A stretch of 64,000 bases of DNA from Candidatus Bathyarchaeia archaeon (GTDB lineage Archaea; Thermoproteota; Bathyarchaeia; 40CM-2-53-6). Both the position numbers and the translations under genes were made by a program. The notes below the pieces were generated by a model. That model searched no databases. It was not told where the DNA came from and was given only the letters and a program-made list of their open reading frames with translations. Positions within the stretch are counted from its first letter, which is position 1; each line of letters opens with the position of its first letter. The stretch lies in assembly GCA_049513715.1 (NCBI GenBank), contig JBEKVV010000001.1, positions 544,001 to 608,000 on the forward strand. The letters are read 5' to 3'. Below are positions 2,214-34,963 of this stretch, piece after piece.

Positions 2214-3086
2214 TTAACGTTTTGCCTTCGATACAGCATACGCTGCAATTCTGTCTGCGGCGTTAACGCCCGTGGCAGCGAGTAACCCTCGAAAGCCTGG
2301 TGAGGCGTTGACTTCTATCACGTAAGGTTCACTCTCAACAGAGATCAAGTCTACCCCAGCAATCTCTACACCCACGGCCTGCGCTGCCTTGACGGCTGTT
2401 TCAGCCTCTACTTGGGTAGGTTTGTGGGGGATTCCGTGTCCGCCCATGTGAATATTGCTCCGCCACTCATGGGCTGCGGCCTTCCGTTTCATGGCTCCCA
2501 CAATCTCTCCTCCAGCGATGAAAACGCGGATGTCTTCGCCTGGATTCGGCAGGAACTTCTGGAGGCAGATCATCTGGTCTAATTCGGAAAGGGTGTCAAT
2601 AATGGGTCCAGCTTCCTTCACATCCCTGACCAGCATGACTCCGATTCCTTGGGTTCCGCTTAGCAGCTTCATAACGAGTGGTGGTGACAGGTACTCGGTG
2701 GGCTCCTCGTTCTTGTTCCGAGAGGCAATCAGTACACTCTCAGGAATCTTCACGTGAGCTGCATAAAGCGCCTGCAAGGCGAGGTACTTGTTCCTCGCCG
2801 TCAAAAGGCCCTCCTTTGAGAGGGTCGAGGGTATGCCCATCAGTTCGAAATGCTTGAGCAACATCACGCCCAATTGCGTTAGACTGCGGCCTATTCGCGG
2901 AATCACAACGTCGATGAGTGAGAGGGATTTCTTTTCGTAGATGGCGTCAACCTTTGCCCCTTCCAAGGTCAAGTGAACTTCTGGCGTTTTGACGTAAACG
3001 GGCTCGACGCCTTTTTCTCTAAGGGCCCGCGTGATCTCCGATGTTGCCCAGAACTCTTGATTTCGAGAGAGTACCCCAATTTTCAT
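2214..3086 (-). CDS. rimK: RimK family ATP-grasp alpha-L-glutamate ligase
   Basis: VIPRIG, GTQGIGV, WRSNIHMGG, GVDL, EVNASPGF. Confidence 0.85.
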   Translation of the reverse strand: MKIGVLSRNQEFWATSEITRALREKGVEPVYVKTPEVHLTLEGAKVDAIYEKKSLSLIDVVIPRIGRSLTQLGVMLLKHFELMGIPSTLSKEGLLTARNKYLALQALYAAHVKIPESVLIASRNKNEEPTEYLSPPLVMKLLSGTQGIGVMLVRDVKEAGPIIDTLSELDQMICLQKFLPNPGEDIRVFIAGGEIVGAMKRKAAAHEWRSNIHMGGHGIPHKPTQVEAETAVKAAQAVGVEIAGVDLISVESEPYVIEVNASPGFRGLLAATGVNAADRIAAYAVSKAKR

Positions 3087-3152
3087 AAGTTTTGCCCCCG
3101 GTCAACGGCGCTTAATACTTGGACTGTTGATAAACGATGCGCAGTGGTGGCC

Positions 3153-31578: not shown

Positions 31579-33796
31579 CTAGGCCTCCATGAAGTCTTCC
31601 GCCTTTTGCGGCTCAGGTGACAGGCCTTTGCGCTTCCGAATGTCAGTGATCACTTGCATGAGCAGCGATTGAGGCACCGGTTGCCAATGTGAAAATTCGA
31701 GCCCCCAGAACGCTCTACCCTGTGAAGCGCCGCGCATCACTTCTGAAAGGTCGAACGTTTCTGCTGTGGGAAGTTCTCCGACAACATATACTAGGTGGCC
31801 GCGTTGGTCTACTGAAACGATTTTTCCGCGTTTCTGCGAGATTACACTGGTTGCTGCCCCGAGGAGTTCTGGTGGAACCTTGACGGTTATCCTCTGAACG
31901 GGCTCTAAGAGGACGGGGTTGGCGTTGAGGAAAGCGACGAAGAAGGCCCTGCGGCTCATGGGCATAATTTGGGCCGGGCCCCTGTGGACGGGGTCTTCGT
32001 GCAATGAAATGTCTGAGATCTTTGCTTTGACTCCACGAATTTGCTCGTACGCCAATGGGCCTTCCTTGATCCCCCAGCGGTAACCGGCGATGACCATCTC
32101 CTTCACTTCCTGAAGGTACTGCGCCCCTTTCGTCACCTCAACTAACATGTTGCTCCCCTCGTCGACGCTCCAGACTCCACGGGCTTCGTCTGGCGGCCAG
32201 CCTTCGTCGCGCAGAATCTTGGCCATTTCATGTTTGTCTTGGTACTCGCCAATTTTTCCTTCCTTGATCATGGTTACGATCTTGTCAGGGAGCGGTTCGA
32301 TGGACAAGTAGATCTTGTTGTGCTTGTTGGGCGATTTGCCTTCGACAGGCCCTGCCGCGCTCCTTACGCTTTCACGGTAGATCACGATTGGGGTTGATGT
32401 AACGATTTCAAGGCCAGTTTTGGTGATGAGGGTTTGGGCGATTTCTAGGTGAAGGGTTCCCATACCTGCGATTAGGTATTCCCCTGTTTCCTCATTGATT
32501 TTCGTGACAAGGTTTGGGTCTTCGATGCTGAGCTTCCTGAGTAGGTCGACGAGTTTTGGAAGGTCGCGGCTATGCTTCGGCTCGACAGCCATTGTAACGA
32601 CCGGCTCGGTTACGTAGTGGACTGCCTCGAATGCAGCTATGTCTTTGATTGTGGAAAGGGTTTCACCAGCTCTTGCCGCATCAAGGCCAAGGAGGGCTGG
32701 TATGTTTCCCGCGCTTATGGTCCCAATAATTTCCCTGTAGGGTCCCATGAATATGCAGACTTGCTGAACACGTTGGTCGACGCGTGCACCAAGAAGGTGG
32801 AACGTTGAACCCTCCTTAATGGTTCCAGAGAACAAACGCCCGCTCGCCACAACACCAGCTTGCGGGTCCACGACTATGTTAGAGATTGCCATGACGACCG
32901 GACCGTTGTCGTCGCAGTTCATCATCGCCTGGCCAACTTCGCTGTTAATGTCTCCCTTCCAAATCTTGGGAATGCGGTATCTCTGGGCCACGTGTGGCGG
33001 CGGCATGGATTCAACAGCCATGTTGAGTATGGCTTCGTGCAGTGGCGCACGGTCCTTCAGTGTCTCCACTTTGTCGTTTAAGTATGCGTCAACAACGTCT
33101 GAGAACTTCACACCCTTCTCCTTCGCGATTTCCGCGTTAAACCCCCACCGATCCTTGGCGGACCCCATTGCAACAGTGTTGCTTGCGAAGCCTACCTTCC
33201 ACTTTTCCCGGTATTCAGGTTCCGCGTAAAGTTCAATGAGACGGTTGAACTCGGTGATAATTCTACCAATGCGCTCCTGGATCTGCTCAGAGTTCAACCG
33301 TAGCTCCTTGATTAGGCGGTCAATCTTGTTGATGTATAAGACCGGTCGAACCCGCTCTTCCAATGCCTGGCGGGTTACCGTTTCGGTTTGAACCATGATT
33401 TCCTCGACGGAGTCGACCACGACAACTGCGCCATCAATGACTCTCAGGGACCGGGTTACCCTGCCCGAGAAGTCTACGTGGCCGGGGGTGTCGATGAGGT
33501 TAATGACGTATGCGATTCCGTTTCTCTCGTGCAGCAAGCTAATGTTTGCCGCTTTGATGGTCATCTGGCGCTTCTGCTCTTCCTCCATATAGTCCAAGGC
33601 TAGCGCTGTGCCAGCCATGCCTGGTGACAGAAGGCCTGCAGCGGCAAGGAGGGAATCGCTCATCGTCGTCTTTCCGTGGTCGACGTGGGCGATGATGCCC
33701 ATATATTCCGGACGCAGAACTCGACTACGCCTTTCGGATCTGGTCCTTGTTCGCTATGATCTTCTGAAGTTCCGTTGTGCTCTTGTAACGGACCAT
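31579..33796 (-). CDS. fusA: Elongation factor EF-2, two exons: join(33796-33733, 33704-31579), 729 aa
   Basis: Exon 1 MVRYKSTTELQKIIANKDQIR; AHVDHGKTT, DTPGHVDF, NKID and diphthamide loop HEDPVHRG. Confidence 0.93.
33705..33732 (-). other. Putative 28-nt bulge-helix-bulge intron in the EF-2 mRNA
   Basis: AGGCGTAGTCGAGTTCTGCGTCCGGAAT; central helix TCCG/CGGA; bulges AA^A and AT^A; 7-bp inner stem; removal restores the frame. Confidence 0.85.
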
Positions 33797-34029
33797 TTGT
33801 TCTCAACTCGACTTTGAAATTCGCGATGGCAACAAGGCTCAATCTCATTTATGCATTACTGTTGAAGGCCCTGTCAAGTCTCCGTCGGTTCGCGAACTGC
33901 TTTTTGCGTGTCAAAAGTCGTCGGGTGATTGAGCGATGATGCCAGTCGCCCTTGGTCTTGGCGCATTTCGCGGTGATTTCTGGTCGCGCGTTAAATACAT
34001 CAAACATGACAGTCTAGACCGAACTTTCA

Positions 34030-34963
34030 ATGCGAACCATCTTCAAACTCTATTTGCTTCTTGTCCTCGGTATTCTGGCTTTCTTCGTTGGTTCAGTATT
34101 AGGAGCCCTTTCATCTGGCAGACTAGTGCTCTCGCAATCAATAGAATGGGCGACGGGCATAGTTGCGATAGCAGAATCAGTTATGGCATTCGCGATATTC
34201 GTTTCCGCCACACTAGATGGTACGATTTTTTGTGCAACAAAGAGCAAAACACTATGCACATATCAACGATGAAGTATTGAAACCGCTCACGACGATAGAA
34301 CTCGAAACTCAAACGAAAACTCCAGACATCCGGAAAATAGGCGACATTTACGGCTTCTATGTTAAACTTCCAAGACATTCCTACTTCTATGATGATGCGA
34401 TTCTGCACTTACAGCTATCAAACCCAACAGTCGCCAGCAACCTAAGCGCCCTACATTCTAGAGTGAGTGAACATAGTGCTGAAATGAGCGAAACAGACGA
34501 TTTCATAGTAACGAAAGTAAATGAGGCATTGAGTAGCCGTAAACTCGAATACGACGGCACGGGAAACGCATTTTTCAACATTATACAAATTCTCAGTGAG
34601 GGGTGGCTTCACTATATCCACCGCATGGATGCCTCTGTCGTGCTGCCGTGGTTGCGACGAACATATCCTCGTATGGATGAAGGTCGTTCCTTGTATCTAG
34701 CGGGCACTTTGGTCTGGGAAGAACGTACAGCGGGTGAAAGAGATAGAGTGGTCGAAGCGGTTGAGAGTCTAGCGGCTGATACTGAGATTTTGCACAAAAT
34801 CGAAGGGCTTGAAAGCTCGAAGAAGAAACTTGAGGCTACCATAGACGAAATTGTTGGAGAAGCACAAGAACTAAGCATGGCAATCGAAAGTGATGGCTAC
34901 ACCGGAAAAGCCGACTGCTGCCCTACCATCTGGCGACTGATTACGACTTACTGGTTGAGCTAG
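34030..34963 (+). CDS. Hypothetical membrane-anchored protein, apparently split across two frames (34030-34272 and 34217-34963)
   Basis: Hydrophobic N-terminal ORF overlaps a soluble +1-frame ORF by 56 nt. Confidence 0.45.

Follow-up and report, generated by a model that had tools for sequence, protein, structure and literature searches.

An intron of the tRNA type, bounded by a motif called bulge-helix-bulge (BHB), was reportedly found in the pre-mRNA of archaeal cbf5 by Watanabe in 2002 and Yoshinari in 2006. Here we describe a 28-nt insert near the start of the gene for archaeal elongation factor 2 (aEF-2), of which the host has a single copy; in all likelihood the insert is a conserved BHB intron of the pre-mRNA. 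The gene lies on the minus strand of a 64,000-nt stretch of DNA (the window; G000:C1:544001-608000) from the assembly GCA_049513715.1 (contig JBEKVV010000001.1) of a Candidatus Bathyarchaeia archaeon, a genome of 2.79 Mb in 11 contigs that is 99.4% complete with 8.79% estimated contamination.

In the part of the 2009 survey by Yokobori that is used here (PMC2738675), cbf5 introns are 16-44 bp long and possess a relaxed BHB that is cut between the second and third bulge residues. The same part gives the intron as present only in Desulfurococcales and Sulfolobales, and lists Cenarchaeum, Nitrosopumilus, Thermoproteales and Korarchaeum without it. A BHB element in the 5' untranslated region of the Haloferax volcanii HVO_1309 mRNA was described by Schwarz in 2020, and the excerpt of that paper on which we draw states that, as of 2020, only the cbf5 intron had been reported in archaeal mRNA besides this element (PMC7714728). 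A search of the full-text literature turned up no account of an EF-2 gene with a BHB intron, and papers beyond the searched set could exist.

The aEF-2 insert resembles those of cbf5 in being short and without an open reading frame (ORF), in its relaxed BHB and identical cut rule, in a host with a putatively heteromeric EndA, in falling within codons for an active-site motif that is highly conserved, and in its patchy gain and loss. Unlike cbf5, the host gene specifies an essential translation GTPase, the intron is only 21 codons from the start, the lineages are Bathyarchaeia and Nitrososphaeria-type families, and there are several insertion sites within about 45 nt, sometimes two per gene or together with an intein. 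With the canonical (hBHBh') introns of archaeal tRNA and rRNA it shares core geometry and cut positions, and presumably the use of EndA and RtcB. Its exons are coding, however, so that codons make up the outer helix and one half of the central helix, which are weaker than in tRNA and rRNA, and since the product would be an mRNA, splicing would have to compete with translation. The HVO_1309 element is likewise an mRNA substrate of the splicing endonuclease, but it is situated in an untranslated leader, outside the reading frame, and so restores no protein sequence. The novelty consists in the host gene, the lineages, near order-wide retention in an essential gene and the multiple sites; the proposed mechanism is of the cbf5 type.

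Reading frames and fold at the aEF-2 start

On the minus strand, the ATG at 33796 opens a 23-codon ORF (33725..33796), MVRYKSTTELQKIIANKDQIRKA, which then meets a stop codon. A 707-aa ORF in a different frame starts at ATG 33702 with MGIIAHVDHGKT. When the 28-nt intron interval (Table 1) is deleted in silico, the two are joined into 21 + 1 + 707 = 729 codons with I-R-N-M-G at the joint. The insert is located in the RNIGIIAHVDHGKT-coding stretch, and the codon for Asn within the conserved motif RN(I/M/F)G is not contiguous in the DNA, arising only at the joint made by the BHB rule. The tryptic peptide expected from a spliced EF-2 would be NMGIIAHVDHGK.

The 707-aa ORF carries the Pfam domains GTP_EFTU, EFG_III, EFG_IV and EFG_C, which make up the EF-2/EF-G set, and matches the NCBIfam aEF-2 model TIGR00490 with 879.8 bits (cut-off 738.45). 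Protein residues 1-697 align with positions 22-720 of the 720-position model, and exon 1 corresponds to the 21 positions that are missing. In public gene calls the protein is stored as a 706-707-aa 'elongation factor 2', and none of the 15 members listed of a 72-member cluster is 729 aa long.

Table 1. Features of the proposed split aEF-2 gene, in window coordinates.
Feature	Position	Strand	Contents or basis
Exon 1 of aEF-2	33733..33796	(-)	Start codon, 21 codons MVRYKSTTELQKIIANKDQIR, first base of Asn codon
Putative BHB mini-intron, 28 nt	33705..33732	(-)	In-frame TAG three codons past the Arg codon
Complete bulge-helix-bulge motif, 45 nt	33699..33743	(-)	Fold, covariation, RNAalifold
Exon 2 of aEF-2	31579..33704	(-)	Last two Asn-codon bases, 707 codons starting MGIIAHVDHGKT, stop codon

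The predicted BHB motif surrounds the joint. Its outer helix is formed by CCAGA (33743-33739) and TATGG (33703-33699), with one G.A mismatch, and its 4-bp central helix by TCCG (33738-33735) and CGGA (33710-33707). The two 3-nt bulges are AAA (33734-33732) and ATA (33706-33704), and the inner stem of 7 bp, GGCGTAG (33731-33725) with CTGCGTC (33717-33711), includes two G-U pairs and closes a loop of 7 nt. The central helix, the inner stem and the 5' bulge of 3 nt are all present in the minimum-free-energy fold, which also contains part of the outer helix, and all three are predicted independently by RNAalifold. A self-splicing group I or group II intron, or another curated RNA family, was considered and rejected: the insert is only 28 nt long, and an Rfam scan of window positions 33400-34100 with E values up to 1 returned only a chance match to ALIL (13.3 bits against a gathering score of 50).

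The intron was first proposed in an earlier note on this DNA, and the coordinates, 28-nt excision, 729-aa product and restored RN(I/M)G motif given there could all be reproduced base for base. The helix and bulge layout it drew matches the sequence at every element, and the rule it applied, a cut following the second base of each bulge, agrees with that published (PMC2738675, in the part used here). A second intact EF-2 gene, which the note had named as an objection to be checked, was searched for and not found in this 99.4%-complete genome, where the sole other match was to a different GTPase (E = 7e-6).

Frame repair and covariation among relatives

Forty relatives of the same genus, family and order were searched, and the gene start was readable in 28 loci, the window's own (L001) included. 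The insert is present at the same place in 24 of these 28 loci; two (L019 and L025) are without an insert there and read straight through as QIRNIG, and in the remaining two the extracted stretch lies inside an intein. The addition of 80 further loci from named genomes brought the collection to 42 distinct intron-bearing sequences, the initial list of 43 having included an intronless false match (L095) that was dropped by eye. In all 42, an in silico cut between the second and third bulge residues gives R-N-(I/M/F)-G. This holds also for L069 and L072, where Arg is encoded by AGG, CAGG/CCTG forms the central helix and the intron lies one base further on, the joint still reading RNFG. Intronless alleles that read through as QIRNIG are found in L019, L062, L067 and many Nitrososphaeria. 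The Arg codon is CGA or CGT in 40 of the 42 intron-bearing genes, and six different Arg codons are used among 39 intronless genes; to judge from these genes, exon codon choice follows the BHB structure.

The upstream segment has the properties of an exon. In 38 of 40 relatives the codon exactly 21 upstream is a start codon (ATG, GTG or TTG), the exceptions being L050 (about 300-360), where an ATG lies 18 codons upstream and exon 1 is MILAYYLMKIVMNKDQIR, with a start unlike the family consensus, and L091, which has ATA at the start-codon position. Summed entropy over exon 1 is 12.4, 9.1 and 24.5 for the first, second and third codon positions, so that, like coding sequence, exon 1 varies mostly at third positions. 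The exon 1 peptide matches the N-terminus of intronless EF-2 genes, and the corresponding region taken from an intronless relative aligns, from about residue 8-10 onward, with the N-terminus of solved aEF-2 chains such as 6u45, 8hl1 and 5h7j. By all these comparisons, exon 1 is a real, conserved coding segment with its own start codon.

These data bear directly on the simplest alternative, that no splicing takes place, exon 1 being an upstream ORF for a 23-residue leader and EF-2 a protein of 707 aa made from ATG 33702 without the usual N-terminus. Such a protein is what gene callers report, it would keep the P-loop AHVDHGKT, and an ATG is the first full codon of exon 2 both here and in 16 of the 42 versions overall. 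In the other 26, however, this codon is ATT, ATC, ATA, TTT or TTC, and the next Met in the sequences read comes after the P-loop, so that the internal start, a check suggested in the earlier note, fails in those relatives. Translation from ATG 33702 would also leave unexplained the homology of exon 1 to the true EF-2 N-terminus of intronless relatives, the 21 further residues expected by the aEF-2 family model, and the covariation of the BHB described below. We consider this alternative very unlikely.

Base pairing was counted on an alignment of 40 sequences, two shifted sequences being left out. Overall, 82.2% of cells are paired, a figure that falls to 22-53% (at most 52.8%) on sliding the partners by 1-3 columns. 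Every cell of the central helix is paired (40/40), and five sequences show a double change there from C-G to U-A. In the inner stem 85.7% of cells are paired, with changes on both sides in six of the seven pairs, and the observed covariation score was reached by none of 500 shuffles. Aligning relatives for presence of the intron and for stem covariation, as had been proposed from the window sequence, therefore uncovered both intronless alleles and compensatory change.

Insert length ranges from 25 to 54 nt among the 42 sequences, with remainders of 0, 1 and 2 after division by three in 17, 17 and 8 of them, respectively. Every insert contains an in-frame stop codon, which is at the third codon after Arg in 37, while only 31% of shuffled introns contain one. 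A stop just past the take-off region, followed by a stem-loop, is a layout like that of known bypass sites, such as the one in phage T4 gene 60, and might suggest translational recoding, whether by a programmed frameshift or by a ribosomal hop over the insert, with the RNA left uncut. But with all three frame classes represented no fixed frameshift works, the Asn codon of RN(I/M/F)G is created only by the BHB-rule joint, and a geometry of 3-nt bulges and a 4-bp helix, maintained by covariation, is a requirement of EndA and not of the ribosome. Recoding of this kind seems to us extremely improbable.

The source of the window is a metagenome-assembled genome with the level of estimated contamination given above, and an assembly or sequencing artefact, or a decaying pseudogene, had to be weighed as well. 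Nevertheless, 42 distinct sequences, drawn from many assemblies, share both the insert and its site. Independent metagenome contigs were also scanned for the genus-type start of exon 2, from which 80 loci were returned of 87 matching stretches, and all 80 carry the insert (78 by pattern and 2 by eye), as unspliced DNA; this disposes of the suspicion, voiced in the earlier note, that the 28 nt could have been introduced by assembly. Decay of the gene is contradicted by its being the only EF-2 gene in a nearly complete genome and by the intact 707-aa ORF, which scores above the aEF-2 cut-off. The probability of either explanation is close to nil.

Several observations count against the intron. 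Fold stability is ordinary (-15.2 kcal/mol, z = -0.84), with 38 of 200 shuffles at least as stable, and BHB-like shapes are frequent by chance, the strict BHB pattern having 35,967 matches across the 2.79-Mb genome, so the case must rest on the comparative evidence. The outer helix is weak: only 63% of its cells pair, a mismatch is almost constant at one position, and RNAalifold does not include it in its prediction, which makes the motif a relaxed BHB; cleavage would consequently depend on a broad-specificity EndA, the breadth of which is inferred from the gene set. The aligned sequences are related and not independent, so that the shuffle statistics overstate significance. A search of public RNA runs for window positions 31579-33900 listed none that covers the gene, which is evidence in neither direction, and the metagenome collection yielded intron-bearing DNA only. 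Because ATG is, by chance, the first codon of exon 2 in the genus of the window, a truncated 707-aa protein from ATG 33702 may be made there as a by-product. Lastly, two metagenome variants (L177 and L194), with Arg codon CGC and 5' bulge CGA, give R-D-M-G under the same cut rule, and in these either Asp may be tolerated or the cut site may be different.

Distribution of the insert and other insertions in the P-loop codons

A covariance model (R1) was built from the EF-2 intron sequences. It has a single match in the window's genome, at G000:C1:577691-577745 (window 33691-33745; E = 2.9e-15), and matches 27 of 151 sampled genomes of the class Bathyarchaeia, G000 counted. Within the window's order, G000 aside, it was found in families f2 (6/6), f10 (5/5), f5 (3/3), f7 (3/3), f9 (2/2) and f8 (2/3), and in the window's own family it matched all three genomes of genus g14. 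There was no match in genus g2 (0/6) or in f6 (0/1). Two families outside the order had matches, f13 (1/1) and f29 (1/3), and the remaining sampled families had none. A broader sample of the phylum comprised 401 genomes, of which 385 had a match to the EF-2 start. Among the matches listed, the best 150 of 385 rows, at least 12 begin at query residue 20-23 and at least 9 read through in-frame stops in a lengthened match; at least 17 of those 21 rows are from other classes, and R1 confirmed the site in four of the five such genomes tested. On these counts, the insert is near-universal in one order of Bathyarchaeia and present in several Nitrososphaeria-type families.

An EF-2 protein tree of 104 rows, made by a quick method, has the site present in 57, lacking in 41 and with an undetermined call in 6, and requires at least eight state changes; the root of this tree is not known, so gains are not separable from losses. 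Most likely, the intron has been inherited through one Bathyarchaeia order and lost several times, with related insertions in the same stretch elsewhere.

The surrounding codons have attracted further insertions. Besides the main site there are at least three others, making at least four insertion positions, and an intein, within about 45 nt of EF-2. A BHB-like insert between the His and Val codons of AH|VD was recognised by eye in L025 (about 237-330), where it is 7 codons downstream of the main site, and in L077 and L091 (both about 404-490). Another lies inside the Lys codon of GKT in L081 and L083 (about 342-430; by eye), its central helix being poor in L083. Two inserts about 20 nt apart are carried by L091. 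The intein, of about 600 aa, is present in some Bathyarchaeia EF-2 genes (L017, L029, L044, L058-L060 and L115; open frames of 1320 and 1200 aa), its first residue being a Cys that directly follows ...AHVDHGK, and its end, ...VVHN, preceding TTMSD. In genome G001 (L115; G001:C20, about 1450-1590) an intein and a BHB intron occur in one gene, 11 codons apart. Inteins of the P-loop and the BHB inserts are alike in targeting the same few codons and in being precisely removed to leave a normal protein. They differ in that an insert of 25-54 nt would be taken out at the RNA level, whereas inteins, here of about 600 aa, are removed at the protein level.

Estimated 'contamination' in the window's genus is 5-10% even for genomes of 3-6 contigs, and is 1-3% in other families of the order. 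Markers that are split by introns or inteins and counted twice might add to such estimates.

Splicing machinery, proposed pathway and significance

Two EndA-family genes are present in the genome. The first (186 aa; ORF L112:1462-2022, minus strand, Pfam match at G000:C1:841621-841866) matches TIGR00324 with 86.6 bits (cut-off 59.6), and the second (192 aa; ORF L113:1474-2052, minus strand, Pfam match at G000:C4:134780-135019) has weak matches to beta-subunit models. This gene set suggests a two-subunit (alpha/beta), heteromeric EndA of broad specificity, the alpha/beta assignment being based on the TIGR00324 match of the first protein and the weak beta-subunit matches of the second. One intact gene for RtcB was detected (C2:140350-141660; 578 bits). 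The genome also has a cbf5 gene that is split into two frames at C1:415543/415545 (region G000:C1:415343-416303; L116, about 1480-1510) by a 19-nt insert in the catalytic Asp codon, with central helix CCCT/GGGG and bulges AGA and TAA. This insert is at the published crenarchaeal site, so the cell also has the one kind of mRNA intron that is established for archaea. A tRNA-Ile intron of the genome, inspected by eye, follows the same cut rule.

ARAGORN predicted introns in many tRNA genes (e.g. C1:251758-251849 and C2:419817-419913), although its output was noisy. Several of these predicted introns are at non-canonical positions, and the CCA end is genomically encoded. A 97-nt tRNA with a CUA anticodon was called 'tRNA-Pyl', and may be a miscalled intron-bearing tRNA.

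It had been suggested from the window sequence that this lineage has more small mRNA introns of this kind; the only second case found here is cbf5. Genome scans, which are of low power and to which short first exons are invisible, gave no excess over position-shifted controls: a strict BHB pattern with an ORF-joining filter returned 3,143 candidates (3,068-3,104 in controls), a 'startless exon 2' filter 155 (152-181), and a relaxed BHB pattern with a codon-usage score 137 (155-177). Both EF-2 and cbf5 were recovered in the final candidate list. Six further top candidates were compared with Pfam and, where families could be assigned, were chance matches at the junctions of separate genes. Two resolved pairs were adjacent genes (Nuo chain 6 and chain 4L; a solute-binding protein and a permease). 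Of a third pair, the downstream ORF alone had a match (an ABC ATPase), and the remaining candidates were without a family.

The pathway that we propose for EF-2 would start with transcription from upstream of exon 1, after which the 45-nt region would form a BHB that is somewhat relaxed, its outer helix being weak. The two-subunit (alpha/beta) EndA would then cut after the second base of each 3-nt bulge and RtcB would ligate the exons, with the 28-nt intron probably freed as a small circle. The spliced mRNA would encode a normal EF-2 of 729 aa, with a G1 region of ...QIR-N-MGIIAHVDHGKT, and on unspliced mRNA translation would end at the conserved in-frame stop after a 23-residue peptide. That cleavage and ligation occur in vivo is what we infer from the conserved motif and joint.

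An intron that is spliced could, in addition, have been kept as a regulatory gate, tying EF-2 output to EndA and RtcB and using the stop to silence unspliced mRNA. Retention across an order, an early-acting position 21 codons from the start, and an in-frame stop that is universal among the inserts, far above the shuffled frequency and mostly fixed in position, are features that such a gate might be expected to have. On the other hand, the intron is lost or absent in otherwise normal-looking lineages (L019, L062 and genus g2), the EF-2 tree has its eight or more state changes, other sites or an intein are used in the same stretch elsewhere, as expected of selfish insertions, and the stop may merely belong to the conserved stem. 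We judge a gate unlikely. The coupling of elongation capacity to tRNA maturation put forward in the earlier note is not supported by this analysis; lineages that have lost the intron show it to be dispensable. It is similarly doubtful that the EF-2 intron acts as a checkpoint by which elongation capacity is tied to the capacity for tRNA maturation and RNA repair; if this were true, the checkpoint would be a prokaryotic counterpart of HAC1/XBP1, the tRNA-ligase-dependent mRNA splicing switch of eukaryotes.

The conserved BHB intron is most likely an old, largely neutral or selfish insertion, tolerated thanks to its removal by a broad-specificity EndA, and is probably not a purpose-built regulator. 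The occurrence of several kinds of insertion in the most conserved codons fits selfish elements, and for this reason a passenger origin is rated above a regulatory one. It is conceivable, if unlikely, that BHB mini-introns have kept their mobility as DNA and home into the P-loop-coding stretch, which would be compatible with a checkpoint as well.

The list of archaeal protein-coding genes with a tRNA-type intron, for more than 20 years confined to cbf5, would with this case gain an essential translation factor that is conserved in all organisms, in which the intron is near-universal across an order of archaea abundant in soil and peat and also occurs in relatives of ammonia oxidisers. EF-2 is a standard phylogenetic and completeness marker. 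Gene callers render it here with its N-terminus missing, and relatives without a start codon in exon 2 must be miscalled in some other way. The clustered intron sites and the intein in the P-loop codons provide a natural system for the origin and spread of BHB introns in protein genes. If the pre-mRNA is spliced as proposed, mRNA splicing would be obligatory for growth in the organisms that carry the intron.

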